Of a stretch of DNA of 64,000 bases, positions 15,329 through 54,536 are shown one piece after another (positions within the stretch are counted from its first letter, which is position 1; every line of letters starts with the position of its first letter). This DNA comes from a virus: the IMG/VR virus record IMGVR_UViG_3300032245_001322, positions 1-64,000 of that record, one strand, 5' to 3'. The position numbers and the translations under genes are program-made. The notes beneath the pieces are model-generated. The model was not told where the DNA came from and did no database searches. It saw only the letters and a list, made by a program, of their open reading frames with translations.

Positions 15329-15375
15329 TATATGAAAAGAGAAAATTGGACAGACACAAGAAAGGCGAATTTATC

Positions 15376-15936: not shown

Positions 15937-16553
15937 TACACAGTTATAGTCAATTTGGTGAAGATAAAATCTTGCAAGATTTCTTCGAATCGGGATACAA
16001 GGGAGTTTGTATTGATGTAGGTGCAACAGATGGTATTGGACAAAGTAATACTTATCATTTCGAAAAACATGGTTGGATGTGTATTTGTTGTGAAGCAAAT
16101 CCCGATATGTACGAGAATTTAAAAATGAATCGCCACAATGCAGTACATTGTGCAGTTGGTAGCGAAGATAAGTTAGAAGTAGAATTTAACGTAGTTACTT
16201 TAACTGCTCAAGGTGGAAATCAAACGGCTATTAGTGGTTTGCAAATAGACCAAAGGTTATATAATGACCATTTGTTTTTGCAACCCGAAGTTAAAAAAAT
16301 TAATGTGCCAATGATGACTTTAAATACTATTCTTAAAAAGTATCCTGCTATCGACAAGATTGATTTTTTATCAATTGATACCGAAGGTACTGAAGTAGAT
16401 GTTATGAAAGGATTTGATATTGCCAGATGGATGCCGAAAGTAGTTGTATTAGAAAACAATTATGACGACAAACATTATGTAGATTACATGGATAGTGTAG
16501 GATACAAAAGAGTTTTAAGAAATGTAGTTAATGATTTTTATATAAAAAAATGA
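15933..16553 (+). CDS. FkbM-family SAM methyltransferase
   Basis: SQFGEDKIL...CIDVGATDG...ANPDMYENL...FLSIDTEGTEVDVMKG pattern of Methyltransf_21. Confidence 0.7.
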   Translation: MIHSYSQFGEDKILQDFFESGYKGVCIDVGATDGIGQSNTYHFEKHGWMCICCEANPDMYENLKMNRHNAVHCAVGSEDKLEVEFNVVTLTAQGGNQTAISGLQIDQRLYNDHLFLQPEVKKINVPMMTLNTILKKYPAIDKIDFLSIDTEGTEVDVMKGFDIARWMPKVVVLENNYDDKHYVDYMDSVGYKRVLRNVVNDFYIKK

Positions 16554-17773
16554 AACACGGAGAAGAAATTTTAGATTTAGGCGAACACTTTGTTAGTGCA
16601 TTTACAGATACGTTCGAAGAAGCGTTTGAAGGGCAGAAATACCCCTTAAAATTAGTTTATGATGAAAACTTGGGATGTCCCGTACTTACAGAACAACCAC
16701 CATTTGATTTAATGTGGGGTAAATATTGGTATCATAGTGGAATCAATGGTAAAATGGTAAAAGATTTAAAAAAAGTAGTTGACAATATTGATGAACTCAT
16801 TTTACCACAAACAGGTGATGTTTGGTTGGATATTGCATCAAATGATGGTACTTTATTAAATTTTGTTAAAAACGAGTACGTTAAGGTGGGGTGCGACCCT
16901 GTTGAAGGATTCATTGCAGAATCATGTAAGCATAGAAGTAATATTTTTATCAATGATTATTTTACGGCTGAAAAATACTTACAAAATGTAACTAAAAAAG
17001 CAAAAGTTATTACTTGTTGTGCAATGTTTTACGACCTTCAAGACCCTATGTCGTTTTTAAATGATGTTAGAGAAATTTTAGATGAAGATGGAATATTTGT
17101 TTTCCAATTCACCTACACACCAAGTATGTTAATGATGGGCGATTTTATGAATATTTGTCACGAACATTATGCTTATCATTCATTTACGAATGTTGCAGGT
17201 ATGTTAGTTCAAAATAAATTTAGCGTTTTTAATGCCGAAATAAATGATGTTAATGGTGGTTCTATTAGAATATATTGTAGAAAAAGTTATAGTCATTCAT
17301 TTTTACCACCATCAAAATATGTGGTAGGAATTGTAAATATGTATGCTTTGCAAACTTTTGAAAAGACTGAAATTTCTTGGGAAACTTTTAAAAAGCATAT
17401 CAATCTTAGCAAAATGAAGTTAGTTGATTATGTTAGAGAAGCCAATAAACAAGGATTATCTGTTTGGGGTTATGGTGCATCTACAAAAGCAAATACTTTA
17501 TTGCAATACTATGAATTGGACTTTGAAGATATTACCAAAATTGCTGAAGCGAACACCGATAAATATGGTAAATTCACAAAAGGTAGTGGAATAGAAATTT
17601 GTAGCGAAGAAGAATGGAGAGAAGCAAAACCAAATCTTACTGTTGTTTTTCCTTTTCAATTTATTGATTATTTTGTAGAAAGAGAAAAAGATTACCTACA
17701 AAATGGAGGTACATTTTTAGTGCCTTGCCCCGAACCTCATTTGATTACAAAACATGGAGTAACGAACTTATGA
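16550..17773 (+). CDS. class I SAM methyltransferase with C-methyltransferase-like C-terminal domain
   Basis: Motif I LDIASNDGTLL. C-terminal VWGYGASTKANTLLQYY...DTDKYGKFTKGSGIEI. Confidence 0.55.
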   Translation: MKHGEEILDLGEHFVSAFTDTFEEAFEGQKYPLKLVYDENLGCPVLTEQPPFDLMWGKYWYHSGINGKMVKDLKKVVDNIDELILPQTGDVWLDIASNDGTLLNFVKNEYVKVGCDPVEGFIAESCKHRSNIFINDYFTAEKYLQNVTKKAKVITCCAMFYDLQDPMSFLNDVREILDEDGIFVFQFTYTPSMLMMGDFMNICHEHYAYHSFTNVAGMLVQNKFSVFNAEINDVNGGSIRIYCRKSYSHSFLPPSKYVVGIVNMYALQTFEKTEISWETFKKHINLSKMKLVDYVREANKQGLSVWGYGASTKANTLLQYYELDFEDITKIAEANTDKYGKFTKGSGIEICSEEEWREAKPNLTVVFPFQFIDYFVEREKDYLQNGGTFLVPCPEPHLITKHGVTNL

Positions 17774-19084: not shown

Positions 19085-19206
19085 GCGTTTAATTATTTGT
19101 TCAAGGGGTGCAACCATTGGCGAAAATTTAAAAAATAAAAGTGTTGCCACCCTTAATGAATACGCACGTTTGAACGAAACAACTATTGACGAAATTTTTA
19201 AAAAAT

Positions 19207-21786
19207 ATGACGAAAGAATTGGACAAAAAAGACACTAAAAGAATATTGTGCTTTATGGATTTTATGTGCCCTACGGGATTTGGTACTGTAGCACACAATA
19301 TTTTAGATAGATTAACACCTTGGTTTAAAAAAATGAACATTGAGGTAGATGTATGTGCATTAAATTACGGAGACAACCCTCATACGAAGTATAACGAGCA
19401 AATAATGGTGCTCAATCCTAAGTTTTTTGCAAGAAACAAAGATGATTTTTATTGGAGGGATGGTGTTTTAAAGATTTTGCAGATAGGAGAATATGATTTG
19501 TTTTTCCCTATGAATGATATTCCCGTTATTAGCCCGATGGGTCGCCATTTACAAGCGTTAAAGGAAGATAAAATTTTTAAAAATAAAAAGCCCTTCAAGA
19601 CCTTATTTTACACGCCAATTGACTCGCAACCATATAGAAGATATTTTAAAGATTTAGAGTTTTTTGATACACTTGTAACATATACAGAATATGGTAAAAA
19701 AGAAATACTTGATGCTTACAAAGTAGTAAGCCCAAATAAAAAAATCAATGTAGAAATTATTAACCATGGTATTGATAGAAAAAACTTCAAACCAATGTCT
19801 AATAAGAGTGAGTTGCGTAAAAAGTATAATATGCCCGAAAATGCATTCATTTGGGGCAACGTAAACAAAAATCAACCCCGAAAGGATATAGGAACTACAC
19901 TTATTGCTTTTAAGTACTTTAAAGAATGGCTAAAAGAGAATCACCCTAACGAGAAAAGTGTTTTGTATTTGCATTGTTATCATTCGGACAATACAGGTAT
20001 CAATTTATATGTAGCCCTTGAAAGACTTGGTTTAACTATTGGCGAAGATGTAATACTTCCTTTAGAAGATAAGTATGTAAGCAATAATTACACTACTCAA
20101 GAGATGAATGAAGTTTTTAATTGTTTTGACGTATTTGTAAATACAACTATGGCAGAAGGTTGGGGGCTTTGTTTAGAATCAAATACCTTAGTTGAAACAA
20201 ATAATGGATTAAAGAAGATTAAAGATTTGCATTTATTTAAAGAAACGCAAGACAAGGTTTTAACTAATGATGGAGAGTTTCATAAAATATTAGATTTTAC
20301 AAGTAGAGATGTAAATGAATATTATATTTTAAATTCAGAATATAATATGGAAGTTTCCGTAACGCCAGAGCATCCATTTTTTGTCACTGATGGAATTTCA
20401 GAGCCATATTGGGCAAATGTTAAGGAATTGATAAATAAGCCAAATATGTACGTTGCAATGCGAAAACCAAAATTAATTAATGTTACGGATTCTAATATTT
20501 TATTAAGATTGGAAAATGAATTGAGTGATTATCAAGAAGATTTTTATTATGAAAATGAATTTGCTTTTTGCAAATATGGGTATTCCCCTTTTAATAAAAA
20601 ATGGAGTATTTCTTCAATAATGAAAAGATATAATGTCACTAAACATACTGTAGAACGTGCTATATTGAAAATAACCAATAATAGATTGTCTAATAATCCA
20701 AATGTTATAGATTTATGTAATAAACTAATTGAAGATGGATTTGAGAAAAACGAACCTATAAAATGCAAATCTAAAATTATAGTAGATGCAGATTTAGCCG
20801 AAGTTTTTGGATGGTATTTAGCCGAAGGCTCAAATGAGAATAGCAATAGAATAGAATTTTCTTTTAATGGAAATTTAATAAATAGTAAAGCAGTTTTTAT
20901 TAAAAACATTTTAGAAAATAAATTTGGATTAAAGTGCGTAATTGATAAAAATGGCAAAAATAAATGTAGAGTCAGAGTATCTAACAAAATTTTAGCAACA
21001 TTATTTGGAGAATGTTTTGGTATTCATGCTGAAAATAAAAAAATACCTCATTGGCTTTATTTAAATGGCGAACTAATGAAAAGTGTATTAAAAGGATATA
21101 TTTTAGGAGATGGACATATTAACCAAAGCAAAAATCACATTTCATATACTACTAAAAGCCCTCATTTAGCATTCCAAATAAGAAGTATATTAATGAGTTT
21201 TAATATAATGTCGGCTATTAAAAAATCAAAAAGAGGGTGTTATTATGTAATTTTTACAAATAATTCTCTTCAAAAAGCAAAATCATTTTTAGGTAATGAT
21301 ATGTGTTTTAGAAATGAAAACACTAGGAGACACAAGCCTAAATACATAGAAACATCTACTCACTTTTTTTCAAGAATAAACAATATAGAATTTGTTAAAT
21401 TAAATGAACCTACTAAATTTTACGATATTTGTGTTGAGAATGAACATAGTTTTACGGCAAATGGTATAATCTGTCACAATACAGTTACTGAAGCGATGAG
21501 TGTAGGAATGCCAATTATTTGTGGATTGCATACTTCTATTAATGAAATTACCGACTATGGAAAATTAGTTTATGGAGTTACGGATATGGTTGAACATTTT
21601 CAAATCTCAGATGCTGAAAATATTCGCTTTAAGTTAAATCCAATTGCAGTTAAAGACCAAATGATAAAAGCATTTGAAAATAGAAACAAACCATTTAGCC
21701 CAAATAAGTATAAACATAAATTCGAGGAATACGATTGGGATAAAATTGCAGAACAATTCAAACAACAAATAAAAAAATTGATATAA
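19207..21786 (+). CDS. GT1/GT4-like glycosyltransferase interrupted by an intein
   Basis: Extein junction AEGWGL | TVTEAMSVGMPIICG reconstructs the GT4 EGFGL--EAM-G-P motif. Track start 19186 is TTG; ATG at 19207. Confidence 0.7.
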   Translation: MTKELDKKDTKRILCFMDFMCPTGFGTVAHNILDRLTPWFKKMNIEVDVCALNYGDNPHTKYNEQIMVLNPKFFARNKDDFYWRDGVLKILQIGEYDLFFPMNDIPVISPMGRHLQALKEDKIFKNKKPFKTLFYTPIDSQPYRRYFKDLEFFDTLVTYTEYGKKEILDAYKVVSPNKKINVEIINHGIDRKNFKPMSNKSELRKKYNMPENAFIWGNVNKNQPRKDIGTTLIAFKYFKEWLKENHPNEKSVLYLHCYHSDNTGINLYVALERLGLTIGEDVILPLEDKYVSNNYTTQEMNEVFNCFDVFVNTTMAEGWGLCLESNTLVETNNGLKKIKDLHLFKETQDKVLTNDGEFHKILDFTSRDVNEYYILNSEYNMEVSVTPEHPFFVTDGISEPYWANVKELINKPNMYVAMRKPKLINVTDSNILLRLENELSDYQEDFYYENEFAFCKYGYSPFNKKWSISSIMKRYNVTKHTVERAILKITNNRLSNNPNVIDLCNKLIEDGFEKNEPIKCKSKIIVDADLAEVFGWYLAEGSNENSNRIEFSFNGNLINSKAVFIKNILENKFGLKCVIDKNGKNKCRVRVSNKILATLFGECFGIHAENKKIPHWLYLNGELMKSVLKGYILGDGHINQSKNHISYTTKSPHLAFQIRSILMSFNIMSAIKKSKRGCYYVIFTNNSLQKAKSFLGNDMCFRNENTRRHKPKYIETSTHFFSRINNIEFVKLNEPTKFYDICVENEHSFTANGIICHNTVTEAMSVGMPIICGLHTSINEITDYGKLVYGVTDMVEHFQISDAENIRFKLNPIAVKDQMIKAFENRNKPFSPNKYKHKFEEYDWDKIAEQFKQQIKKLI
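20170..21480 (+). mobile_element. LAGLIDADG-type intein (437 aa) inside the glycosyltransferase gene
   Basis: Starts with Cys (CLESNTLVETNNG, block A). LAGLIDADG-like FGWYLAEGS and LKGYILGDGHI. Ends ICHN with +1 Thr (block G). Confidence 0.75.
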
Positions 21787-22279: not shown

Positions 22280-24640
22280 ATGCAAAATATTGATTACGAT
22301 TTAGAATACGATAACGCTATAAAAAAAATGGCGTTAGGTGGAGAGACCTCTGCTTTATTTAAAATAGATACCCCAACGGGTGCTCCCTCTAAATTGACTT
22401 ATATTCAACAATTATTAGTTCGCACTAAATCGTTTAAAGAATGGTTTGGTGATTGGGAAGATTTTGCTAATAAAATTGTACAAAGTAGAAAAGACAAAAG
22501 TCCTTTCTATGAAGTTGAAATTATGATAAAGAAAAATTTTGATAAAGACGACAAAAGCAATGGTAATTTGTCGAAGAATCAAAAATTATTATGGATATAT
22601 TTTGAAAACTTTGATATTAAAAATCTTTCTTATACAATTGACTATGACACTTTAGAACCACAAGCATATTGGCATGGAACTAAATCAGAAGAATTTTTTG
22701 AATTTAAGACTTATGTAAGTCGATTTGGTAGACCATACGCTTATTTTGCAGTTAATAAATCTTATAGTGATTTTTTTAGTGCAAGTGAAGAGCATTTATA
22801 TAGTGTTTTTACTTGTATAAAAAATCCATATATTAATTTTAACTATGAACATCAAAACACACTATCCTTTATATCAGAAATATTTATTGATTATGGTTTA
22901 AAGAATAATTTGGATTCGGCTCAAATAGAAAAATTGGCTAAAGATAAAGAATACGATTATATTAAAAAATATGGTATTTCATTTAGTCAAAGTAAAGATT
23001 ATCCATTTTGGAGATTGATGTCCGATGATAGTATGGGTCAATTCAAAATGTTTTTACAATCATTAGGTTATGACGGAGTTATGTATGTTGAAGAACTTCG
23101 ACTCGATTCCGATATAAGTAAAGAAGATGAATTTACAAGAGCCGTTACAATATTTGAACCTAATCAAGTAAAACTTGCAGATGGCAGGAATACTGAATTT
23201 AGTTCTTTAAGTAACGATATACGTTATGAAAAAGGTGGGTTAATTGCTCCTAATGGCAAGAAAAGTAATTTAACTCCCGAACAATATAAACTTGTTCGTA
23301 CTCCCGAATTTAAAAAATGGTTTGGAGATTGGGAAAATGACCCTAAAAACGCAAGTCAAGTTGTAGACGAAAATGGAGAACCTTTAGTAGTTTATCACGG
23401 GACTTATGCAAAAGAGCCATTTTACACATTTGATTTAGAAAAAGCCGATTTAGGTTTCCATTTTGGGACAAAAGAACAAGCAAAAAATCGCTCTACAACA
23501 AAATTTTTTATAGAGGGGTTTAAATCTTATGTAAGTTCTTATTTTTTAAACATAAAACCTTTATTTGAAGTAAGTGATATTGGAGAATGGGAATACCCTC
23601 AAAGATATATTGATATGTTAATTTCAGACAACATAATTGATGAAAAAATTGCCAAAGAAAAAGGGTTTTTAAGTGCTTATTATAGAGAAGACAATGTAAA
23701 AATTCGAGAATATATAAAATCTAAATATGGCAATTTTGTTGGGTTTATTTACAACAATAAATATGAGGGAGATGGTAAATCATTTATTGTACTTTCCCCT
23801 AATCAAATCAAACTTGCAGACGAAACAAACACAACTTTTGATAATGAAAGTAACGATATAAGATATAAAGAGGGTGGTAATATTGACAATAAAATTGCTT
23901 TTATTACAAAATTTGAAAACAATATTTATTGGTTAATATCTAAAAAAGATGATGATTTTTATTATCAAATAGATGGCGATAGAAGATTATATGTTGTCAA
24001 AGACATGGCTAAAAGATGGGGATATAAGTTAGTTTCTGCAAAAGAATATAATGATTATTATGATGTTCCCGAAAGAATAAGGATGCATGAAAATAAAACA
24101 AAATATGAAAATGGAGGCAAAACAACAACAATGAATAGATATTCTCATTTACACGGAATGTTTGGGCAAGAAACCCCAAAATTTGCCGAAGGTGGTTCAG
24201 TAGCAACTGCACACGGAATTACTAACAATGGTAAAAAAGGTGGTTACTTCGATGGTAGAAGTCACGCTGAAGGTGGTATAAAAGCATGGAATTCAACAAC
24301 TAATTCACCAATAGAAGTAGAAGGGGGAGAAGTTATTATCACTAAAAAAGCCGTTGAAGATGATGAATTATACGAATTTGAAGGCGAAATGCTAACAAAT
24401 AGGCAAATATTATCCAAAATAAATGAAAGTGGTGGAGGTGTTAAGTTTGAAGATGGTGGTGAAATTCATCAATGTAATTGTTCGGGTAAAATGTATAAAT
24501 TTGGGGGCGAAACTATGGAAGATTATCAAATAATGAATAAAATAAATTCAACTTATAATAAAAAACAAGGCATGAAAAACCATAAAACTTCTTACGGGCA
24601 CAACCTTATGAGAAAAATGAAAGAAGGAGGATATTGCTAA
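22280..24640 (+). CDS. large internally duplicated protein (two modules with WFGDWE and Y/W-HGT motifs; C-terminal aromatic-x-GG repeats)
   Basis: FKEWFGDWE...YWHGTKSEE and FKKWFGDWE...VVYHGTYAKE. PNQVKLADGRNTEFSSLSNDIRYEKGG vs PNQIKLADETNTTFDNESNDIRYKEGG. ATG 8 nt after TATATTTG. Confidence 0.6.
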   Translation: MQNIDYDLEYDNAIKKMALGGETSALFKIDTPTGAPSKLTYIQQLLVRTKSFKEWFGDWEDFANKIVQSRKDKSPFYEVEIMIKKNFDKDDKSNGNLSKNQKLLWIYFENFDIKNLSYTIDYDTLEPQAYWHGTKSEEFFEFKTYVSRFGRPYAYFAVNKSYSDFFSASEEHLYSVFTCIKNPYINFNYEHQNTLSFISEIFIDYGLKNNLDSAQIEKLAKDKEYDYIKKYGISFSQSKDYPFWRLMSDDSMGQFKMFLQSLGYDGVMYVEELRLDSDISKEDEFTRAVTIFEPNQVKLADGRNTEFSSLSNDIRYEKGGLIAPNGKKSNLTPEQYKLVRTPEFKKWFGDWENDPKNASQVVDENGEPLVVYHGTYAKEPFYTFDLEKADLGFHFGTKEQAKNRSTTKFFIEGFKSYVSSYFLNIKPLFEVSDIGEWEYPQRYIDMLISDNIIDEKIAKEKGFLSAYYREDNVKIREYIKSKYGNFVGFIYNNKYEGDGKSFIVLSPNQIKLADETNTTFDNESNDIRYKEGGNIDNKIAFITKFENNIYWLISKKDDDFYYQIDGDRRLYVVKDMAKRWGYKLVSAKEYNDYYDVPERIRMHENKTKYENGGKTTTMNRYSHLHGMFGQETPKFAEGGSVATAHGITNNGKKGGYFDGRSHAEGGIKAWNSTTNSPIEVEGGEVIITKKAVEDDELYEFEGEMLTNRQILSKINESGGGVKFEDGGEIHQCNCSGKMYKFGGETMEDYQIMNKINSTYNKKQGMKNHKTSYGHNLMRKMKEGGYC

Positions 24641-25974
24641 TGGCAAAAGAGAAAAAAGACCTCATAATTTTTGGGGAAACGTATAAAAACATTGACGTAA
24701 ATACTTATGGAGGCTCATATACTTTGGATACTACAGGTATTGCTCAAGTGATTAAGCAATATGTTAAAAACAATTATGGAGATATAAAAGTTTGGGCAAA
24801 AAGCAGTTCATATTCTATGGGTTCATCTATAAATATATATTTATGGAATGTTCCAAAAGATTGGGTTAAAAAAATTAATGATTTCGCTCAAAGTTTTGGT
24901 CAATACAATGAATATGATGGAGGTGATGGAATATGGAAGGGTCGTGAAGTAGATGCTCAATTAACCGATGGAACGAAAATTGGAAATTGGTCGCCAATTA
25001 TATTTGTTAATAATACACCACCTTATGGCTCAAAAGAATATGATTTGACACCTCCAAATTACGAAGATATGCCTAAACCTAAGAAAAAAGAATACAAGGG
25101 TAAATTCGAAAAAAAAGGTGCTAAATTTAGTCCAACTGACAACCTTGATTTAATTCTTGATTGTGGGAATGGATGGAAAATTTATGTGGGTAAACCAAAA
25201 GAAAAATATCTTTATAAAGCAGTTAAGGACGAAGCAACAGAACCTAATAGAGAGAAGTGGGCTGAAATTAAATCAGATATGCTTGAAGTAGGTTTTCAAT
25301 GGAATTGGAAGGACGCTACATTTGTTAGATGGACGACTAATGCCGATGATACCATTCCACAAATGGCTTGTGATGTTTTAAGCAAATATTGGGCAGGAGC
25401 GAGTCAACCAAAAGCAGAAAATCCCATAAAGCCACAAGTAGTTATTCCACAATGGACTGAATTCGAATTAATAGAAGATGATGGGAATTTAAAAAAGGGA
25501 GATATAGGTGTTTTATCTAAAGATTATTATCCACCAAATACTTTTGTAGATGTATATATGAATTCTGAAGCAAGACCCGATTATAATTATATTATTCCAT
25601 TTAAAAAGATTAGGGTTATTGAAGAAAGCACAAAAGAAGTTTTGCCATTTTATTTAAACGATACAATACAATTAAAAATGCCTTTTCGGTATAATGTTTC
25701 GTTGTATCCAATAGGATATGTTGGTGTTATTAGTTCTATTGATTATGGTCAAAAAGAAGCCTATATAGATTTTGATGGCAATGGAATTACTATACCCGTG
25801 CCTTTTGAATTTATTGAAAAATATGTATCTAAATCACAAACAAAATTAGAAGTTAATTTAGATGAATATATTAGTGACTTAAATTATCTATTAGAGATGG
25901 AAGCAGATGAATCAAAAAGAATGGAATTGGCTACATATATAAGCGATTTAAATACCTTAAAATTATTAGATTAA
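24640..25974 (+). CDS. hypothetical protein
   Basis: ATG overlapping upstream TAA, preceded by AAGGAGG. Confidence 0.55.
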   Translation: MAKEKKDLIIFGETYKNIDVNTYGGSYTLDTTGIAQVIKQYVKNNYGDIKVWAKSSSYSMGSSINIYLWNVPKDWVKKINDFAQSFGQYNEYDGGDGIWKGREVDAQLTDGTKIGNWSPIIFVNNTPPYGSKEYDLTPPNYEDMPKPKKKEYKGKFEKKGAKFSPTDNLDLILDCGNGWKIYVGKPKEKYLYKAVKDEATEPNREKWAEIKSDMLEVGFQWNWKDATFVRWTTNADDTIPQMACDVLSKYWAGASQPKAENPIKPQVVIPQWTEFELIEDDGNLKKGDIGVLSKDYYPPNTFVDVYMNSEARPDYNYIIPFKKIRVIEESTKEVLPFYLNDTIQLKMPFRYNVSLYPIGYVGVISSIDYGQKEAYIDFDGNGITIPVPFEFIEKYVSKSQTKLEVNLDEYISDLNYLLEMEADESKRMELATYISDLNTLKLLD

Positions 25975-25980
25975 AACGAA

Positions 25981-27435
25981 ATGACACAACAAGAAATAAA
26001 TTCAAAAATTGAAGCAATGGAAAGGATTGTAAGCAATCCAAGTACCCCCGAAAGTATTCGCTTAAATGCTCAATCCAAATTAGATGAATTAAAAGCAATG
26101 ACTCCTAAAGTAGAGGAAGTTGTTATAAAAGAAACTAAAAAAGAAAAAAAGGCAAAATCAACTACTGATGGTTCTTCAACTATTGATGCTATGCTTACCA
26201 CATTGAGGGCTATGATGCTTTCTAATCAAGGTGGTGGCATGGATAGTTACGAAGTAAGGAAAATGATTGAAGAGTTCCTTACAACTCGTAAAATCAATTT
26301 AGATGAATTAGATAAAAGCGTTTTAGATGAAATACGCAAAAATCAAATAGTTGTTTTAAGTTTGCCTAAATACGATTTGCAAATTACAGTGGATAAAAGC
26401 ACTGCAATGATACCAAATATTTTCTCTATTTTGGATGATGTATTGGCAGGAAATAACGTTTATTTAATTGGTGAGGCTGGTTCAGGAAAAACCATATCGG
26501 CAGAAAAAGTATCTGAAATATTAAATAGAGAGTATTTAATGTTAAATTGTTCTCAATATACTTCGCCAACTGAAATTTTAGGAGGTCAAACAATCGAAGG
26601 TTATAAGGATGGCAAATTAGTGATAGCATGGAGAGATGGTAAAATATTGGTTTTAGACGAAATGCCTAAACTTGACCCGAATACGGCAGGTTTATTAAAC
26701 GATGCTTTAGCAAAATCTTCTAAAACAAGAAAAAATCCTAAAATAAATTCAACGAACCCAAGCGAACCTCCGATTCCAAGAAATGAAAATTTTGCAGTTA
26801 TAGCAACAGGTAACGTGTATCCGAATAAACCAAACCCAGCAGGATATGTTGGTAACAACCAACAAGATTTATCTTTATTAGATAGATTTAGTGGTAGTGT
26901 TTACTATGTTGATTATTCTCAATATATTGACGAAGAAAGTTGCCGTTATAAGTTTTTATATGATATGCTTGTAGGTAATTATCATGAATATATTAAAGCA
27001 AAAAGAGATGGTAGACCATTGCCTACCCCAAGAGGATTAAGAACGATTATTGAAGCAAACAATATGAAAAATATGGCGTTAGTTTCTTATCGTACAATTA
27101 TTGCCTTTAGAGTAGGTTTTGAAATAGAATTGGTTCGTGCTATTGCCAAAAAACAAGGAGATTCAGATGTTACTAATAAAGGGAAAACGGTATTGTCAAC
27201 TTTTGAAAGTTATTTAGTTGCTTTTGGCGATGATGCTAAACAAACCTTAATTCGTGAAAGTGGATACACCTACGATGAAGTTGAAAAAATAACTAAAAAT
27301 GCTATTGATTTAATCGTCAATGGTGGAGAAAGTGGGTTTGTAGATTCATTGACCCCAATGGTTAAAGAAACGGCTTCTAAAATTTATAGCGAATCAACAA
27401 ATTGGTTAATTGCTGATAAATATATTGTTAACTAA
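25981..27435 (+). CDS. MoxR/AAA_5-type AAA+ ATPase
   Basis: Walker A GEAGSGKT, Walker B ILVLDEM, sensor ATGN, LLDRF motif typical of MoxR-like ATPases. Confidence 0.65.
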   Translation: MTQQEINSKIEAMERIVSNPSTPESIRLNAQSKLDELKAMTPKVEEVVIKETKKEKKAKSTTDGSSTIDAMLTTLRAMMLSNQGGGMDSYEVRKMIEEFLTTRKINLDELDKSVLDEIRKNQIVVLSLPKYDLQITVDKSTAMIPNIFSILDDVLAGNNVYLIGEAGSGKTISAEKVSEILNREYLMLNCSQYTSPTEILGGQTIEGYKDGKLVIAWRDGKILVLDEMPKLDPNTAGLLNDALAKSSKTRKNPKINSTNPSEPPIPRNENFAVIATGNVYPNKPNPAGYVGNNQQDLSLLDRFSGSVYYVDYSQYIDEESCRYKFLYDMLVGNYHEYIKAKRDGRPLPTPRGLRTIIEANNMKNMALVSYRTIIAFRVGFEIELVRAIAKKQGDSDVTNKGKTVLSTFESYLVAFGDDAKQTLIRESGYTYDEVEKITKNAIDLIVNGGESGFVDSLTPMVKETASKIYSESTNWLIADKYIVN

Positions 27436-28736
27436 TGGGATTTACTAAAGTAGACATATCTTCAGTCAAACCTAATAGTCAAACTATCTTATTTGATAGT
27501 TATTTTGACTATGTAGATTACATAAATGATTTAGTCCCTAAATTACAAGGGAATGCTCGGACTGTTTATGATTTGACATTTTCACGAACAACTCTTGAAA
27601 ATGATGCAAGAGATGAAAATTGGTTTGGTACTACAGACCTAAGTCAAGTAACAGACGATGTGACTACTTTTTTATTCAATAATGAATTAAGTCAAGAATT
27701 AGAAGCATTTGACAGACGTAATACAAATATTGAACAAATAGATTTAGAGCAAAAAAAGAAAATAACTTTTACTGCTCAAGAAATTGGAATTTTCTCTTTT
27801 GACCTTGCATCTTTAGGGCTTATTCCCGTAGTTGAATATTTTAGCCCACTATTAAATAGAATTGTTAGTGGCGATGAAGTTCGTTCTTATAAAACGGGTA
27901 ATGGGGATGTGGTTTTTTATCACATTTTCGTTGCCGAAATACCACAACACTATTTAAAACAAGAAAAAGGTAAATTGTTTTCTCCTATTTTAAATATTTT
28001 TGTCAATGAAAATAGTCCTTATGTTATTAAAGAAATAATTGATGGCAAATTTGAATTTATTCATTTAAAAGTAGAAGAAATTCCACGTCACGATGTTCAA
28101 CAAAGACAAGTTATTGGAGATAATGGATTGCCTAAATTTAGTTCTACTTGGAAAAAAAGTTTTATTTATATACCTCAAATTCCTTTTCAGTTACCTCAGA
28201 TAGATATTGTTATTCAAGTCAGTTACAATGCCTATATTCAAGCAAGAAACCAAATGTTTTGGACTTCTGTTGCGGTGAACGCTATTATTGAAAAATTAAG
28301 CAAATCTAATGTTAGATTTAGAATTTATGCAGGAGGTTCAACTTCTTGGGGAACGAACGGAACGAAAATAATAAGTAGTTTTATTAAACTAAAAGATTTA
28401 AACGACCCATTAAATATAAATACAACTTCAATTATTTCTGCTGATGCAAGAAATTTTAGGTATCAATTTTTTAAATACATTATAACTGCTTCTTATGATT
28501 TAGGATATGATGCAGATATTAATACAGGTTTGGGTAGGGCGATTAATGATGTTGATGTTACAAAAAGAAGTCTTATTGAAGCATTGAAAATAAGTAAAGA
28601 TTTTGGAAGTAGTCAAAACGATAGTTTAAATCCTAATACTAAAATTATAATCAATGCTTGTTTAAGTGAAGAAGAAGCCCAAGAGACATTTGATAGAGCG
28701 ATAAGACAAATTAAAAATTTAGAGCAAACGCCATGA
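27435..28736 (+). CDS. hypothetical protein (possible partner of the AAA+ ATPase)
   Basis: ORF immediately downstream with start/stop overlap. Confidence 0.5.
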   Translation: MGFTKVDISSVKPNSQTILFDSYFDYVDYINDLVPKLQGNARTVYDLTFSRTTLENDARDENWFGTTDLSQVTDDVTTFLFNNELSQELEAFDRRNTNIEQIDLEQKKKITFTAQEIGIFSFDLASLGLIPVVEYFSPLLNRIVSGDEVRSYKTGNGDVVFYHIFVAEIPQHYLKQEKGKLFSPILNIFVNENSPYVIKEIIDGKFEFIHLKVEEIPRHDVQQRQVIGDNGLPKFSSTWKKSFIYIPQIPFQLPQIDIVIQVSYNAYIQARNQMFWTSVAVNAIIEKLSKSNVRFRIYAGGSTSWGTNGTKIISSFIKLKDLNDPLNINTTSIISADARNFRYQFFKYIITASYDLGYDADINTGLGRAINDVDVTKRSLIEALKISKDFGSSQNDSLNPNTKIIINACLSEEEAQETFDRAIRQIKNLEQTP

Positions 28737-29035
28737 CAGATTTACAAAAATACAAAATAGAAAATTTAAGAAACGAGTATAACAATAATGTTAATGAATA
28801 CATAGGGTTTGGCTCTGAAAGGTATTGCTCTTTTGAAGTTAGAAAAAGTCTAAATGAGGAAGATAATAGTATAACTATTGTTTCAACTTTAATAGAAGAT
28901 TTATCTGAAGAAAACATTCCATTTACTAAACAAATATTTTATAATATTTTATTTGATGGTGAAGTAATAACTATGAATTTAGTTATGCCACAACCATTAA
29001 TTGCTAAATATATAAGTAACACAACACTAATATGA
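28733..29035 (+). CDS. hypothetical protein
   Basis: ORF. Confidence 0.5.
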   Translation: MTDLQKYKIENLRNEYNNNVNEYIGFGSERYCSFEVRKSLNEEDNSITIVSTLIEDLSEENIPFTKQIFYNILFDGEVITMNLVMPQPLIAKYISNTTLI

Positions 29036-29409
29036 TAAGATTTTTTAATTTTTTAAATATATCCGAAGAGGAACAAAATAAATTACCACAAGATATTCTT
29101 GATGGTGGCAAATTAATTGATGGAATGCAGTTAATTTATGAAGAAATAACAAATGAGCGTAAAAGAGATGTAATGGCTCATACTATTGCAGAAATGTCAA
29201 GTATTTTGTTAAAGCGTTTAAATGAATATAAATTAAATCCTAAAGCAAAAGAAAACATTGAAGAAGAAATAAAAGAAATTGAGCAGGTTCAAGATATTCA
29301 AGAAGTTCAAGTTGTCGAAACGCCACCAAGTGACGATGATAAAAATATTGATGAAAAAAGATTATTTTTGGAACATATTAGAAAAGACATTTTAGATATA
29401 GAATTTTAA
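29032..29409 (+). CDS. hypothetical acidic protein
   Basis: ORF. Confidence 0.5.
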   Translation: MIRFFNFLNISEEEQNKLPQDILDGGKLIDGMQLIYEEITNERKRDVMAHTIAEMSSILLKRLNEYKLNPKAKENIEEEIKEIEQVQDIQEVQVVETPPSDDDKNIDEKRLFLEHIRKDILDIEF

Positions 29410-29418
29410 AATAAAATT

Positions 29419-30216
29419 ATGAGACATACTACAAATACTTTATCCACTTTATACAGGTCTATTGACCAAACAAAGATTTCTGATAAAGCAAAGGAAACAT
29501 TAAAAAAATTGCGTTTAGCAACGGGTAATTTTGTTGGTAAAGACGAAGAAGCAAAACAATTATTTGTTGATTTTTTTAACAAGTTAAAAGAAAGTAAACC
29601 TATTGCCGTTAAGACAACTCCCGAATATAAAAAGGCTTTGAGAGATGCTCAAAGAGAGAGAGGTAAAGCCCTTGGCGAAAAAAGGAAACAGAAATCTAAA
29701 GAGCCCAAAGGTACAGGGAACGAAATTGACGCAAGTAGACCTGCAAAACCTTTTGGATGGAGAATGAGGGGTAAACATAATTACAAAAAACCTACAAGAG
29801 CAGACATTACAGAAGGAAGAGCGTATTACGAAGGACGTGTTAATCGTGCAGATGTAAAACGTAAAAAATATCCTATGTTAGAGCGTGGTGGCTATATGGC
29901 TGAAGGTGGTATGATTAACCATGGCTTTAGAAGTGGAGATAAAATCATTGAAATTTACAAAGGATATGGCATTATAGAATCAAAAGATATTGTTGAAGTA
30001 ATTGACCCTTCAAGAGGTTCTCGCTATGTTGTAGACCATGGAAATACTATGGACGAACAAATTGATGGTGCAAAAAGAATGATTGATAATATGACCCCTA
30101 TAGAACTTGTAGATAGAATTGAAATAGGAACAGATAGAAATGGTTCTATGGATAGACGTGGAGTTGAATATGCTAAAGGTGGAGTATTTTACACCGAAAA
30201 ACACAAAAAAGATTAA
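29419..30216 (+). CDS. basic protein with aromatic-x-GG repeats
   Basis: LERGGYMAEGGMINHG, YAKGGVFY. Lys/Arg-rich N-terminal half. Confidence 0.55.
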   Translation: MRHTTNTLSTLYRSIDQTKISDKAKETLKKLRLATGNFVGKDEEAKQLFVDFFNKLKESKPIAVKTTPEYKKALRDAQRERGKALGEKRKQKSKEPKGTGNEIDASRPAKPFGWRMRGKHNYKKPTRADITEGRAYYEGRVNRADVKRKKYPMLERGGYMAEGGMINHGFRSGDKIIEIYKGYGIIESKDIVEVIDPSRGSRYVVDHGNTMDEQIDGAKRMIDNMTPIELVDRIEIGTDRNGSMDRRGVEYAKGGVFYTEKHKKD

Positions 30217-31085
30217 TGATGAAGTTGTTTACAAAAGACATTGATAAAAAGTTATTTGCTCAATTCCCGAAAGGTGGGGATTTAGCAAATCAAAAGGTAA
30301 TTGCTAAAATATTTAATCCTTATGGTCGTGGAGTTTGGTATATAATTAATTCAGACCCCGATGACCCAGATTATTTATGGGCTATTGTTAACTTATTTGA
30401 AGTTGAAGTAGGGAGCGTTTCAAGAAAAGAACTTGAATCTTTAAGAATAAAGCCATTTATGTTGCCTTTAGAGAGAGATTTATCGTTTCGTGAAAGAAAT
30501 GCTTTAGAGGTATATAAAGGTGTACAAGGTGGCGAAAGATATGAGCATGGTGGGGAGTTAGAAATGGGTATCAAAAAAGAAATGGAAGAGCATGGTATGT
30601 CAAAAGAAGAGGCTACCAAAACGGCTATAGACCACTTGAGAGAAAATCCTAAATACTATACATTGCTTGAAAAATTCAAATTAGCAGGTGGTGGCGTAAC
30701 GAGAAAACATAAAATTACCTTGTATGAAAGTAAATTAATGGCTGAAGAAGGTAAACGAGTTTTAGTATCTCAAGATGGTCAACAATTTTATACTATTGAA
30801 GAAGGTGTCCTATACAAAACTGATGATGACTTAAATCATCAAGAAAAGTTTGATATGGATAAAATAAAGTTAATTATTTTACCTATGGAAAGTTATGAAA
30901 GTAAATTTGCAAAAGGTGGTTTAACATTTGATGAAAAAGTTAAAGCAGTTAAAAAATCATTAATGAGTAGAGATGTTCCTAAAAAATATCGAAATTTGTA
31001 TGGTAAAAAATACGATAAAGATGAAGCAGAGGAATCTGCTAAAAAAATTATTGGGGCACAAGTAAAAAAATACAACAAAAAATAA
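30216..31085 (+). CDS. protein with aromatic-x-GG repeats
   Basis: YEHGGELEMG, LAGGGVTRKH, FAKGGLTFDE. Confidence 0.55.
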   Translation: MMKLFTKDIDKKLFAQFPKGGDLANQKVIAKIFNPYGRGVWYIINSDPDDPDYLWAIVNLFEVEVGSVSRKELESLRIKPFMLPLERDLSFRERNALEVYKGVQGGERYEHGGELEMGIKKEMEEHGMSKEEATKTAIDHLRENPKYYTLLEKFKLAGGGVTRKHKITLYESKLMAEEGKRVLVSQDGQQFYTIEEGVLYKTDDDLNHQEKFDMDKIKLIILPMESYESKFAKGGLTFDEKVKAVKKSLMSRDVPKKYRNLYGKKYDKDEAEESAKKIIGAQVKKYNKK

Positions 31086-31097: not shown

Positions 31098-31598
31098 ATG
31101 GACAAAATTATTAAAGTTCTCAAACAGAACAAATTAAAAGAAAGTATGCTAAGTCAAGAGATTCAAACTTCTATTGAAAATCTTGAAAATTTAATTGTAA
31201 AGCATAATGCTGAAGTTGATGAATTGGACAATTCAGAAGAAGTAACTGAAGAACAAGAAAATCATATTGAGCAACAATCTCAATTAATTGATTCAACGGA
31301 AGCAAGTATTGTTTCTGCAATTGAAACTTTTTTAGAAGCAAAAGCAGATGCTGAAGCAAAAGCAAAAGAAGAAGCAGAGCAAAAAGCAAAAGACGAAGCC
31401 GATAAAAAGGCAAAAGAAGATGCTGATTCAAAAGCGAAAGCAGACTCAGAAGCAAAAGAAGAAGCCGATAGAAAGGCTAAAGAAGAATTAAACAAACCTA
31501 AACCAAAAGAGAAAAAAAGTGGATTAGGAATGTTTTTGTTGGGTGCAGTAGTACTTATTGCAACGGCAGGGGTAGTTAATGTAATGAATAAAAAATAA
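31098..31598 (+). CDS. coiled-coil repeat protein (KAKEEAD repeats) with C-terminal TM anchor
   Basis: AEAKAKEEAEQKAKDEADKKAKEDADSKAKADSEAKEEADRKAKEE, then GMFLLGAVVLIATAGVV. Confidence 0.55.
   Translation: MDKIIKVLKQNKLKESMLSQEIQTSIENLENLIVKHNAEVDELDNSEEVTEEQENHIEQQSQLIDSTEASIVSAIETFLEAKADAEAKAKEEAEQKAKDEADKKAKEDADSKAKADSEAKEEADRKAKEELNKPKPKEKKSGLGMFLLGAVVLIATAGVVNVMNKK
31330..31480 (+). repeat. imperfect 21-24-nt coding repeats (GCAAAAG[A/C]AGA[A/T]GC[T/C]GA...)
   Basis: Encodes KAKEEAD-type repeats. Confidence 0.5.
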
Positions 31599-31891
31599 TG
31601 GCTTATAAAATAACTGCATATACCAAATCACAAGCGAAAAAACTTGGCGTAGTAGTGAAGAATTCTTCGGTGAAAGGGAAGAAGATTGCAGTTATTAAAA
31701 ACGGCAAAAAAATAGCCGATGTAGGTGCATTAGGTTACAATGATTATCCCACTTTCCTTGAATTAGAAAAACAAGGCAAATTGCCAAAAGGTACTGCAAC
31801 CCAAAAAAGGAAAAATTATAAAAGTAGGCACGAGAAAGATAGGAAAGTCCCTAATTCTCGTGGCTACTATGCAGACAAACTTTTATGGTAG
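31598..31891 (+). CDS. hypothetical basic protein
   Basis: ORF. Confidence 0.5.
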   Translation: MAYKITAYTKSQAKKLGVVVKNSSVKGKKIAVIKNGKKIADVGALGYNDYPTFLELEKQGKLPKGTATQKRKNYKSRHEKDRKVPNSRGYYADKLLW

Positions 31892-32634: not shown

Positions 32635-33399
32635 ATGGCAAACATTGTTATACCTGCATTAAAAGAAGAATATAAAGTACCTGCAAACCAACCACCTTGG
32701 AAAATTCAGTCAATTGCGACTGTTAAAAAGGTAAAGGCTAATTATGGTAAAGTTCTTGAAGAAGCATCAAGTTATATTGGTGTGCCTTATGAATTAGTAG
32801 TTGGCTTTACTTCAACCGAGAGTGGTGGTGCAAAAAACGAAACTTTAAATGGTGGTGCAAAAGGTATTATGCAAGTCGAAGTAGGTACTGCATGGCAATG
32901 TTTATCAGACCAATTAAAAGTTGATACCTTGGGTAATTTTTATATTTTTTATAAACTTGCACCAAACTTATTTTCAATTAAAAAAACTATTCCAAATCCT
33001 TTAGGAAATGCAAGTAATGAAAAGGCTTCAGATTATTTAAAAATAAAACCTTTAAGTTCTGTATCAAGTTCCGTTGCAAAATATTTAACGACAAAAGATG
33101 CCAAATTTTCTGCCTACATAGGTTCTTTGGTATTAGGTCAAATGATTAACAAAACTTTGAAAAGTGTTGGTCAAATTAGACTTGACCATATTATCATTAA
33201 GTATAACGCAGGAACGGGTGCTTTTTCTAAAAATGTAACAAAAAAAGGGTTGGAAAAATCAAATGTTGATACAACGGGTATTTACAATAGTATTAAAACG
33301 AACTTCGCTCAAAGAAAATCTGAGGTTCTTCGTTCGTACTTAGTAAAAATGCTTGGTATTAATGGTTTTTTAGACGTTCAAAAACAAAAATTAGCATAA
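32635..33399 (+). CDS. lytic transglycosylase (SLT domain)
   Basis: FTSTESGGAKNE...GAKGIMQVEVGTA matches the SLT E-S ... GLMQ motif. Confidence 0.6.
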   Translation: MANIVIPALKEEYKVPANQPPWKIQSIATVKKVKANYGKVLEEASSYIGVPYELVVGFTSTESGGAKNETLNGGAKGIMQVEVGTAWQCLSDQLKVDTLGNFYIFYKLAPNLFSIKKTIPNPLGNASNEKASDYLKIKPLSSVSSSVAKYLTTKDAKFSAYIGSLVLGQMINKTLKSVGQIRLDHIIIKYNAGTGAFSKNVTKKGLEKSNVDTTGIYNSIKTNFAQRKSEVLRSYLVKMLGINGFLDVQKQKLA

Positions 33400-33762: not shown

Positions 33763-34244
33763 TGCAAGGGGTTTTTAAGGAAATATCGAGAGCGACTGAA
33801 GGGTCTTATGGTACTGCAATCATTTATGCAGGTGCTATTGGATTGATTCTATCTGACATTATTCCTACTCCTGCTGACGCTTTATATTTCTATACCGAAA
33901 AGAAACTTCGTGACCAATGGGTTGCTAAACAAATTACGCCAAAACAATATTGGATAAGGTCGGCATCGGCTTATTACTTATACAATCCTATTTGGTGGAC
34001 TTTGGTTTTAGGGGCTATGCACTACACCGAAGGCGACTTTAAACAAAAGGCTAAAATTGGCTTAATGGTTATTGGAGCAGGTGCAGTAATTGGTATGATT
34101 TATAGGAACTATAAAGTAGACATTCAACAAGTTAAAGAAGATGCTTTTGCAAAAGACACAAAAGTAAACTTTGATGCAAAACCAAGTACCAATCGAGTAA
34201 GAAGTGTTTACAGAGTTGGTAATAAAATTAAATTCACACAATAA
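33762..34244 (+). CDS. membrane protein
   Basis: Several hydrophobic segments. Confidence 0.5.
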   Translation: MQGVFKEISRATEGSYGTAIIYAGAIGLILSDIIPTPADALYFYTEKKLRDQWVAKQITPKQYWIRSASAYYLYNPIWWTLVLGAMHYTEGDFKQKAKIGLMVIGAGAVIGMIYRNYKVDIQQVKEDAFAKDTKVNFDAKPSTNRVRSVYRVGNKIKFTQ

Positions 34245-34597
34245 TGATAGACCCTAACGCAACACAACAAGTAGCAACAAATGGTGCAGGAGGTTCGCCA
34301 CAAGTGAACATCCCACCTATGGAAACACCAACACCATCTCAAGGTATGGCAGAAGGTGGTTCAACTGACAATAATACAATTGATACTTTAGAAGAAAATA
34401 CGGCTATGGATAGAACTCAATGGTTAACCATTTTTTTAATTGGTTTAACAATTGTATCCTTAGTCATGAGTATCGTTTCAAGTCGTAAACAGATTCAAAA
34501 ATTGGACAAAGATGATTCTGATATGAACAAAAAATTGAACGAACTCGAAACTAATTTAAGAAAACAAATGGGCGACAAGTATGAAGAGTTGGCTTGA
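34244..34597 (+). CDS. TM protein
   Basis: Central hydrophobic helix. Confidence 0.5.
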   Translation: MIDPNATQQVATNGAGGSPQVNIPPMETPTPSQGMAEGGSTDNNTIDTLEENTAMDRTQWLTIFLIGLTIVSLVMSIVSSRKQIQKLDKDDSDMNKKLNELETNLRKQMGDKYEELA

Positions 34598-37861: not shown

Positions 37862-38029
37862 TTTGTAAATAATTGATTTTCTTGTTATTGGAAATTAAAT
37901 TCTAACATAGTTAAACATTCATAGGAATTTAAGAAATGCGTAGCAAACTTATTATCAATAATAAAAAATAATTTTGAAATAGTTAAGACCTCTGAAGGTG
38001 CTTGACAAGAAAAAAATAGAAATATAGAA

Positions 38030-38869: not shown

Positions 38870-38892
38870 TCCTAACAATTGACTTTATAAAA

Positions 38893-53495: not shown

Positions 53496-53526
53496 CAAAT
53501 ATAATATTATTTTTGAAAATAACTAC
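53496..53526 (-). promoter_or_regulatory. conserved promoter cassette
   Basis: AGTTATTTTCAAAAATAATATTATATTTG on the minus strand. Confidence 0.55.
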
Positions 53527-54536
53527 ACTACACCACCATCTTTAAATTTAGAAATAGCAAGTTTAGTTGTAGCCATGATTTCTTTACGCTCGGCAGTAAA
53601 TTCTTGTTTAGTCAAAATACCCTCACGAAATAAACGCTCTGATTCTGCTAACATCTCTTTTTCACGCTCAAGGGCTTCTTGAACATTTTTGGTTCGAGTT
53701 TCTTGAGAAGTTTTTTGCTCTAAAGTTGGTTTTTCTTTTTTTGTAGGACGTGGACGCTTTCGGGCTTCCTTTTCTTTCATTGCTTGTCTACGAACTTTTG
53801 CACGTTCTTTTTTCGCTAATGTTATTTCTTTTCGTCTTGCTCTACGTTGTTCTAAAGTTTCTTGTGGTAAAGGAATTTCGGTTGTAGATACTTCAGCAGT
53901 AAAAGTTGGTGGAACTTCCTTGCCACCTATATATAGTGTAAAACGTAAAAAATAAGAATCCGTTTGACCATCGTCAGTAAATCCTTCTCTAACTACGGGT
54001 TGTCCCACCCATTCGGGTTCTGAGTCGTCCTCTAAAGATTCTCTAATACTTTCAATAATTTCGTTTAATCCCGTAAATTCATATTGATAATTCAATAAGT
54101 CAAAAATACCTGTAGAACCATATTCTCCTGCATTAACTTCAACTCTTAAATCCAAGGGGCTAACTTCAGAAAACAAATCAACACTTAAATAATCATCAAG
54201 GTCAAACCATAGGATACCCGTGGTTCTTGAAGGACTAATAAGTAAAGGGTTATAATAGATTTGTGAAGATTGTACACCTTCAATAATTGGAGTAGGAGAA
54301 GGATTTTGGGCTTGAAGTTGTGTTTGAATTACCGATTTAATATCTCTTACTCTAACTTGGTAAGATTTTTCGCCTTTAAAGTCGGGATAAACATTTTTTT
54401 GTGTAAATTCTCTAACTTCTTTTACCGACCATTGTAAATCATTTTTTTCGGCAAATTTTTTGACGGATTTATAAACCTTATAATAGGTCTTTAAGGCTTG
54501 TTTTCGTTTCGTTTGGACTTTTGGATTACGGGGCAT
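53523..54536 (-). CDS. hypothetical protein with basic C-terminal region
   Basis: Preceded by GTCACCCCTTAAACACAAT element. Confidence 0.55.
   Translation of the reverse strand: MPRNPKVQTKRKQALKTYYKVYKSVKKFAEKNDLQWSVKEVREFTQKNVYPDFKGEKSYQVRVRDIKSVIQTQLQAQNPSPTPIIEGVQSSQIYYNPLLISPSRTTGILWFDLDDYLSVDLFSEVSPLDLRVEVNAGEYGSTGIFDLLNYQYEFTGLNEIIESIRESLEDDSEPEWVGQPVVREGFTDDGQTDSYFLRFTLYIGGKEVPPTFTAEVSTTEIPLPQETLEQRRARRKEITLAKKERAKVRRQAMKEKEARKRPRPTKKEKPTLEQKTSQETRTKNVQEALEREKEMLAESERLFREGILTKQEFTAERKEIMATTKLAISKFKDGGVV

Follow-up and report, generated by a model that had tools for sequence, protein, structure and literature searches.

The stretch analysed here, hereafter the window, is positions 1 to 64,000 of IMG/VR virus record IMGVR_UViG_3300032245_001322 (64,000 nucleotides of virus-like DNA with a low guanine plus cytosine (GC) content of ~30%). 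Three of its genes encode proteins, here called p786, p265 and p289, in which small unrelated modules are separated by a seven-residue junction signal, [Y/F/M]-[A/E]-x-G-G-x-[V/I/T/L/M]; no repeat domain is involved. These proteins fall under the definition of polyvalent proteins. That the motif is a selected signal of module junctions is very probable, and its structural and evolutionary description is solid. As to its biochemical role, we infer that the seven residues would be a recognition site for a trans-acting factor, most likely an endopeptidase cutting at or beside Gly-Gly; for the junction signal and this role taken together we see about even chances. The three genes are as follows.

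22280..24640, +: p786, a 786-residue polyvalent array protein; Pfam ART-PolyVal in two stretches (E=1e-20)
29419..30216, +: p265, a minimal cassette array; no Pfam match
30216..31085, +: p289, a cassette array; Pfam DUF2958 and DUF5661

Motif consensus and enrichment

The consensus was derived from a search with p289, which returned 219 homologues; the best 120 were analysed and contained 678 GG sites. Tyr, Met or Phe stood three positions before the first glycine (-3) at 85% of these sites, Ala stood at -2 in 51%, Lys, Glu and Asp dominated at -1, and the second residue past the GG pair was Thr, Val, Met, Ile or Leu in 88%. Among the ART-PolyVal homologues of p786, 119 of the best 120 had three or more motifs, in a set reaching down to ~31% identity. 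The motif also occurred at 8.05 copies per 1000 residues in 134 non-redundant proteins that carry the SH-EGG domain of p786 described below.

An earlier note on this DNA had reported a recurrent aromatic-x-GG motif in the three proteins, and all 15 strings that it quoted are present in the sequence. It had placed them between 24090 and 31085 and, within p786, in the C-terminal third. This is only partly right: YEKGG (residues 316-320, 23225-23239) and YKEGG (residues 529-533, 23864-23878) lie upstream of 24090 and in the middle of the protein, and a further copy, MALGG (residues 17-21), lies near its N-terminus. The note had named a shuffled control as the test that could refute it. The motif passed this control, run as 5000 residue shuffles of each protein. 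For the pattern [FYWMH]xxGG, p786 had 9 matches against 0.87 expected, a number reached in none of the 5000 shuffles, and p289 had 3 against 0.24 expected, reached in 3 of 5000. The 2 matches in p265 (0.32 expected) were reached in 201 of 5000 shuffles, which is weak for this protein alone, although its 2 matches to the narrower pattern [FYM][AEK][EKNHDF]GG (0.03 expected) were reached in only 3 of 5000.

The marginal value of p265 for the broad pattern is what speaks for an origin of the strings by chance from Gly/Glu/Lys-rich sequence. Against this origin stand the shuffles of p786 and p289, the position-specific conservation of the motif in hundreds of homologues, and its density elsewhere. 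The arrays of related loci had 9.96 motifs per 1000 residues, whereas other proteins of the same loci had 0.99 and unrelated DUF2958 loci 0.52, a contrast that is partly circular because a protein counted as an array only if it had three or more motifs. Low-GC bacterial contigs that carry DUF2958 without arrays had only the background density; the motif is therefore not an artefact of composition, and we regard the chance explanation as negligible. The motif is non-random and common to the three proteins, as the note had held.

The note had also found no repeat family to name, and the searches agree with it. The motif is not described in the Pfam, PHROGs or NCBIfam models, nor in the literature covered by our full-text searches, which did not extend to every journal. 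The Gly-Gly repeat families of Pfam (KGG stress repeat, Gly-zipper_YMGG) had no match in p786, p265 or p289 at E<=0.01; a Gly-zipper_YMGG match in the window belongs to an unrelated small open reading frame (ORF). NCBIfam has no model for any of these proteins either.

Modular layout of the array proteins

p786 begins with a 21-residue leader, followed by two ART-PolyVal modules, an 80-residue module, a 26-residue spacer, the SH-EGG domain, a 16-residue spacer, a 41-residue helical module and a final motif with two residues after its GG pair. Its junctions and the SH-EGG domain are the following.

22328..22342, +: MALGG, residues 17-21, junction motif closing the conserved ~20-residue N-terminal leader
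23225..23239, +: YEKGG, residues 316-320, junction between ART modules 1 and 2
23864..23878, +: YKEGG, residues 529-533, junction after ART module 2
24104..24118, +: YENGG, residues 609-613, junction
24182..24196, +: FAEGG, residues 635-639, junction before the SH-EGG domain
24197..24460, +: SH-EGG domain, residues 640-727, ~88 residues; no Pfam model
24494..24508, +: YKFGG, residues 739-743, junction
24617..24637, +: MKEGGYC, residues 780-786, complete seven-residue motif with the stop codon immediately after it

The leader consensus in 46 homologues is MxKYDxEYxxxxxKMxxGG, and residues 1-21 of p786 are helical and leader-like. ART module 1 ends in NDIRYEKGG and module 2 starts with LIAPNGK, and homologues are alike. 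The AlphaFold 2 (AF2) model of p786 has two confident ART domains, with a predicted local distance difference test score (pLDDT) below 50 at residues 317-319 between them and a low-confidence stretch from residue 531; the C-terminal third is poorly modelled overall.

The other two proteins are shorter. p265 consists of a conserved basic N-terminal module (residues 1-158), the mini-unit YMAEGG, one cassette (residues 165-255) and the conserved tail VFYTEKHKKD. p289 starts with DUF2958 and DUF5661, continues with a beta-rich cassette and closes with a basic, helical end module that is conserved. Their junctions are the following.

29878..29910, +: LERGG-Y-MAEGG, residues 154-164, tandem junction in p265
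30169..30183, +: YAKGG, residues 251-255, junction preceding the conserved C-terminal tail of p265
30540..30554, +: YEHGG, residues 109-113, junction after DUF2958 in p289; G112 and G113 invariant in 40 homologues
30681..30695, +: LAGGG, residues 156-160, junction after DUF5661 in p289; homologues read GL[AE]DGG
30906..30920, +: FAKGG, residues 231-235, junction before the end module of p289; G234 and G235 invariant in 40 homologues

The AF2 model of p289 has four folded units (residues 1-110, 123-143, 163-226 and 236-289) with helical or mixed folds, and pLDDT falls below 50 at residues 111-122, 144-162 and 227-234, which are its three joints. A further string in p289, FPKGG, lies within the confident DUF2958 fold, is unconserved and is not a junction. 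Foldseek found nothing in PDB that matched the p289 model significantly, and PDB sequence and profile searches gave nothing useful for p289, the p786 C-terminus, a 335-residue protein, a 232-residue family or the ATPase family.

Not every string quoted in the earlier note is the same thing. HAEGGIKAW and EVEGGEV lie inside the one conserved SH-EGG domain, whose pattern is GRSHAEGGI...IEVEGGEVII...INxxGGGVxFxxGG. The strings KKGG, HAEGG (24263-24277), EVEGG (24314-24328) and ESGGG belong to the domain itself, and FEDGG (24446-24460), its terminal string, is the sole one there that behaves as a joint. At E<=1e-3, 1120 cluster representatives carry SH-EGG; their lengths range from 137 to 2161 residues, and the domain may stand at either end of the protein or inside it. 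By tblastn, SH-EGG also matched the C-terminal end of a protein annotated as the tape measure protein in Elizabethkingia phage TCUEAP1 (L067, 3001-3315).

This domain, with its several GG pairs and its presence in an annotated tape measure protein, is what favors the note's proposal of a repeated binding module, in which the GG strings would be cores of a cell-wall, capsid-interior or DNA-binding domain. Elsewhere the segments between motifs, which range from 5 to >300 residues, are unrelated, independently folding modules, 103 of 139 module families being singletons (below), the motifs of p289 lie outside its folded units in predicted disordered joints, and no repeat family matches. Binding to any of the three proposed partners is unsupported, and a repeated module is a very improbable explanation.

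Cassette turnover at the junctions

Scans of IMG/VR gave 66 loci for comparison. Some 19 low-GC loci are syntenic with 24.6-39 kb of the window and have two or three motif-rich proteins each, and the same gene order was found on contigs of 96 kb and 102 kb. The 219 homologues of p289 have the same ends and variable middles: DUF2958 stands first and the basic helical unit last, with a differing number of unrelated cassettes between them. An orthologue of p265 (L003:6955-9999) matches it in the first 157 residues and in the tail, yet extends to 1014 residues with ~10 extra cassettes. The array at L014:2882-9988 reaches 2368 residues with 26 motifs, and a second array of that locus has 1731 residues and 19 motifs. 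When 40 arrays from 18 loci were cut after each motif, the resulting 283 modules fell into 139 families, some of which were common to p265-type and p289-type arrays.

The breakpoints between relatives lie on the motif. In an all-against-all BLAST comparison of uncut proteins, 1543 of 12012 internal ends of high-scoring segment pairs fell exactly on the last glycine, and 32% fell within 3 residues of it, against 10% for random positions. Between close relatives, entire cassettes are inserted or deleted at the motif (P0001 versus P0002 versus P0005; P0021 versus P0031). At the DNA level, the window aligns with its closest relative, L003 (~90% identity), in blocks whose ends fall exactly on MLERGG, YAKGG, YEHGG and FAKGG: in the p265 gene the homology ends at nucleotide 473, right after MLERGG, and resumes at YAKGG, and in the p289 gene it ends at YEHGG and resumes at FAKGG. 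Because DNA homology breaks exactly at the joints, cassette turnover happens at the joints.

The arrays are confined to one lineage. Higher-GC loci with a 55-64% identical DUF2958 lack the motif, and in 33 motif-less loci the DUF2958 homologue is a stand-alone ORF with a median length of 113 residues. Equally low-GC contigs with DUF2958 from Ignavibacteria and Bacteroidota metagenome-assembled genomes (MAGs) lack it as well, so the motif is a lineage trait and not an effect of composition. The exact DNA pattern for GG-Y-M-A-[E/K]-GG matched 16 stretches in all of IMG/VR, half of them on contigs of this lineage already fetched. No close cultured relative was found by megablast of the region or by tblastn of p289, the L003 array, the ATPase and the 335-residue protein against 50,697 phage records, and exact-sequence look-ups of window proteins gave no contig record. 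The GTDB species-representative genomes yielded a single array-bearing match, a contig of 1.6 kb that had been binned to a Bacteroidota MAG (L089, BJGN01000346.1); this is a weak hint that the host belongs to Bacteroidota.

Selection on the peptide and on the DNA

Across the window and 17 related loci, all synonymous codons are in use at the motif, with a moderate preference for GCT and GGT. Ala at -2 is encoded by GCT in 64% of cases, against a background of 35%, and the first motif glycine avoids GGA (12% against 31%), which would create GGAGG. Identical 15-mers are no more frequent among Y- and F-type motifs than codon usage predicts, whereas in MAxGG mini-units they exceed that prediction 2.4 to 6 times. 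The synonymous variation indicates that selection acts mainly on the peptide, and it rules out a purely DNA-level signal. Internal translation starts at Met-type motifs were likewise discarded as a general explanation, since 56% of the motif copies in the p289 homologue set have Tyr or Phe at -3.

Part of the DNA evidence would suit a different role, in which the motif is an uncleaved flexible hinge and a recombination adaptor whose uniform DNA allows in-frame cassette swaps while the arrays stay intact. The breaks in homology with L003 at the junctions agree with such a role, as do the shared 15-mers of the MAxGG mini-units, the lean to GCT and GGT and the 24-nucleotide GGYMAEGG unit of p265, which is 100% identical at two other L003 junctions. 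The fixed end modules would suit an intact protein. The window also encodes the following recombination proteins.

49226-50023, -: RecT annealase; Pfam RecT, E=3e-26
50198-50971, -: PD-(D/E)XK nuclease; Pfam DUF3799 and PDDEXK_1

However, a hinge of this kind does not account for a peptide that is conserved through many synonymous codons, with Y- and F-type DNA matches at chance level, and a plain hinge needs no aromatic residue at -3, no Ala at -2 and no hydrophobic residue at +2. It also leaves unexplained the copies at protein ends and in a membrane protein that are described in the next section. We consider it an unlikely explanation of the motif by itself. Exchange at the joints may nevertheless take place alongside another function: near-identical junction DNA in some arrays would let a viral RecT system swap cassettes in frame, and RecT and the PD-(D/E)XK nuclease could drive this exchange.

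Terminal copies of the motif and copies outside the arrays

Many array proteins have a motif close to an end of the chain. The first motif lies within 25 residues of the N-terminus in 37 of the 120 ART-set proteins, and 35 of the 120, p786 included, end exactly two residues past the last GG; 34 of these 35 read M[KR][QE]GG[FY][ICV]. Such motifs stand 13-21 residues from N-termini and exactly two residues from C-termini. Copies in two further proteins of the window are the following.

53526..53546, -: FKDGGVV, complete seven-residue motif at the extreme C-terminus of the 337-residue protein 53523-54536
34346..34360, +: MAEGG, residues 35-39, single copy in the 117-residue single-pass membrane protein 34244-34597

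No orthologue of the 337-residue protein occurs in the fetched loci. In the membrane protein, 6 of 7 orthologues retain [ML][AE]xGG, which ends an otherwise variable Pro/Ala-rich N-terminal region. A similar string, YLKKGG, in a PAP2 protein is unconserved. A passive hinge fails to explain complete motifs that have no domain on one side, and a site read by another protein does explain them.

Such a site need not be cut. The seven residues could instead be a docking motif, bound repeatedly by the particle interior, by a membrane or by a pair of conserved neighbors, the AAA+ ATPase and the DUF7192 protein, which would load or unfold uncut arrays for packaging or ejection. The note's "shared assembly signal" possibly lives on in this form. 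The two genes are the following.

25981-27435, +: MoxR/CobS-like AAA+ ATPase; Pfam and PHROGs
27435-28736, +: DUF7192 protein; Pfam and PHROGs

This pair (25981..28736) always has the ART array before it and the other two arrays after it, in the related loci as on the 96-102 kb contigs, and its invariable synteny suits docking, although the AAA+ gene also adjoins DUF2958 in 9 motif-less loci. The complete motifs at the very end of p786 and at that of protein 53523-54536 occupy a typical place for a docking tail, and the membrane protein keeps its single conserved copy. The SH-EGG domain, through its presence at the C-terminus of a tape measure protein, hints at p786 as a possible virion protein. 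No docking partner has been identified, and pairs of small residues after a hydrophobic anchor are generally more typical of protease sites. We judge docking without cutting to be rather improbable, somewhat more so than the hinge. Cutting, docking and hinging are not mutually exclusive.

A candidate protease recognition site

In the mechanism that we favor, polyvalent virus proteins would be strings of unrelated, independently folding modules of ~50-120 residues, each ending in [Y/F/M]-[A/E]-x-G-G and followed by a module that begins x-[V/I/T/L/M]. An endopeptidase would cut at or beside the Gly-Gly, and the modules (ADP-ribosyltransferases, DUF2958, DUF5661 and many unknowns) would become separate effectors, either before packaging or after delivery to the host. 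We prefer a protease site because the modules are unrelated and also stand alone in other phages, because the site is short, with a hydrophobic anchor and two glycines and with conservation on both sides of the GG pair, and because the motif lies in disordered joints, occurs in tandem copies and is confined to one lineage. The odds that the motif is a protease site are, in our estimate, just short of even.

The only peptidase family recognised was M23, in the following gene.

60595-61101, +: membrane-anchored M23 peptidase; Pfam Peptidase_M23, E=2.9e-23

Reading of the sequence shows a hydrophobic helix at the N-terminus of its product and the motifs HxxxD and HxH. M23 enzymes, lysostaphin and LasA among them, are known to cut at Gly-Gly, and this protein is an unproven candidate for the enzyme that would process the joints. 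Several observations weigh against proteolytic processing. Cutting is inferred throughout. The scanned ORFs, from 64 kb of a ~68-kb genome, contain no recognised protease family other than M23, divergent or novel ones being possible. The M23 gene lies among receptor-binding-like genes, and given this neighborhood and the membrane anchor its product more probably acts on the cell wall. When traced across the lineage, the gene was found in the closest relative only. No embedded peptidase was found in p786, p265 and p289 (Pfam) or in five large arrays. The arrays keep fixed first and last modules, for which products cut free would have no need, and a cut two residues from the C-terminus would release only a dipeptide, so that such a terminal motif fits docking as well. 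The structural models support a linker position of the motif well in p289 and at the joint between the two ART modules, but only there.

Presence and absence profiles single out no protease gene, since the motif-using loci form one syntenic lineage in which every core gene co-occurs. Two other candidates were rejected. The 446-residue protein 24634-25974 has a conserved DCG, but inspection by eye revealed no histidine, which rules it out as a Cys-His protease. RadC/JAB proteins were ruled out as processing enzymes because the window has none and relatives have them only sporadically; a nucleic-acid role has been argued for them (PMC5512222). RadC/JAB modules (HNHPSG...S..D) form the last cassette of some DUF2958 arrays or a separate gene directly after the array (L009 5945-6454; L010 2209-2721; P0110, P0111).

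In its widest form, the proposal is that a widespread, uncultured lineage of double-stranded DNA viruses of bacteria (~60-100 kb, probably infecting Bacteroidota) follows a polyprotein strategy with dozens of tiny effectors for host takeover or anti-defence, that the Gly-Gly protease belongs to no recognised family or is borrowed from the host, and that the site doubles as an in-frame recombination joint. This picture is tentative and somewhat less probable than the protease site itself.

Comparison with known systems

The closest known relatives of the arrays are the polyvalent proteins, for which processing into separate units by embedded zincin-like peptidase domains has been proposed (Iyer, Burroughs, Anand, de Souza and Aravind 2017, PMC5512222). 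As in that class, unrelated domains share one mobile-element polypeptide, with two ART modules and at least four further units in p786 and four units in p289, and signature domains are present: ART-PolyVal in p786 and Zeta_toxin in the L009 array (E=4.9e-28). GNAT, N6-methylase and RadC appear in the precomputed Pfam lists of homologues. The arrays differ in that the embedded peptidase, common but not universal in the class, was not found, and in that their cassettes are for the most part very small and uncharacterised and turn over rapidly. A uniform seven-residue signal stands at every joint, whereas no junction motif is described for the class (PMC5512222). Polyvalent proteins and the idea of their processing, without a defined site, were thus already known; what is new here is the junction signal of hypervariable cassette arrays. 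A classic packaged effector of a phage is the Alt ADP-ribosyltransferase of T4 (PMC5512222).

A short site with a hydrophobic anchor and Gly-Gly, repeated at every boundary between functional units, is also a feature of virion precursor proteins of other viruses. Adenovirus precursors are cut by adenain, and pp220 and pp62 of African swine fever virus (ASFV) by pS273R, at GG-X sites. In our motif the hydrophobic residue stands at -3, counted from the first glycine, one position further from the GG pair than the -2 of the adenovirus consensus, which also counts against a protease site, and the host is bacterial as far as a binned Bacteroidota contig indicates. A clan CE cysteine protease of the adenovirus or ASFV type was recognised in none of the scanned window ORFs, divergent or novel proteases being possible. 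ASFV polyprotein processing is mentioned in PMC10308890.

Three other systems resemble the arrays in part. With the internal proteins of phage T4, which are packaged and injected and have a capsid-targeting sequence and the gp21 prohead protease, they share a short N-terminal leader followed by a consensus site. The gp21 site, L/I-x-E, occurs once per protein and not in a multi-cassette array, and a prohead protease was not found in the window. In polyubiquitin and ubiquitin-like precursors, each head-to-tail unit finishes with Gly-Gly and the last GG is capped by one or a few residues, an arrangement much like the C-termini of arrays that end in GG and two residues. The modules here, in contrast, are mutually unrelated and not beta-grasp folds, and the window has no deubiquitinase-like enzyme. 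The ~20-residue helical leader of p786 (residues 1-21), which ends in GG, recalls the double-glycine leaders of C39 systems. However, the consensus of those leaders differs from the p786 leader, the window has no C39 domain or ABC exporter, and copies of the motif are mostly internal.

Genomic neighborhood

Several other genes of the window were annotated alongside. Near the M23 gene, a 268-residue ORF (58873-59679, +) has an L,D-transpeptidase-like H...S-x-G-C signature by eye and no Pfam match, and a BclA_C-like ORF (59994-60581) lies between the two. A 763-residue protein of DUF285/BspA-type repeats (...FNQxIxxWNVSNVTxM...; 55318-57609, +), with strong PHROG matches of unknown function, may be a host-recognition protein. 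A sugar-modification cluster (14387-17773, +) encodes a GDP-mannose 4,6-dehydratase, an RNase_T-like exonuclease, an FkbM methyltransferase and a C-methyltransferase; related contigs have several glycosyltransferases at this position. A glycosyltransferase-like ORF of 866 residues (19186-21786, +) is split by an intein with a LAGLIDADG homing endonuclease (Pfam Intein_splicing, LAGLIDADG_3, LAGLIDADG_2).

Downstream of the arrays, a 97-residue protein (31598-31891, +) that is kept in 18 related loci has a weak DUF5754 match (E=7e-5, below the Pfam cut-off). In the literature searched, DUF5754 is named only in papers on an algal virus and on polinton-like viruses. The window also encodes an SLT enzyme (32635-33399) and a glucosaminidase (46358-46924). 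A weak HerA/FtsK-like ATPase (37046-37861) is followed by ~20 small ORFs that are often membrane-like or Gly-rich. A portal, a large terminase, an HK97-type capsid protein and a tail protein went unrecognised throughout the 64 kb, the stretch 36042-48300 (+) in particular, and the particle may be non-tailed.

Biological significance

Polyvalent proteins are thought to carry first-strike weapons that are injected with the phage DNA. A uniform junction signal provides a simple parser for the domain boundaries in these arrays, and most of the resulting module families are new; every module is a candidate for an effector or anti-defence protein that works alone. The motif is present in at least about a thousand protein clusters from public metagenomes. 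A role as a protease target would make these arrays a clear example of polyprotein processing by a DNA virus of bacteria and would point to a protease not yet recognised, whereas as a docking site the motif would define a signal for packaging. Cut or docked, the motif marks the exact points at which this arsenal is reshuffled.

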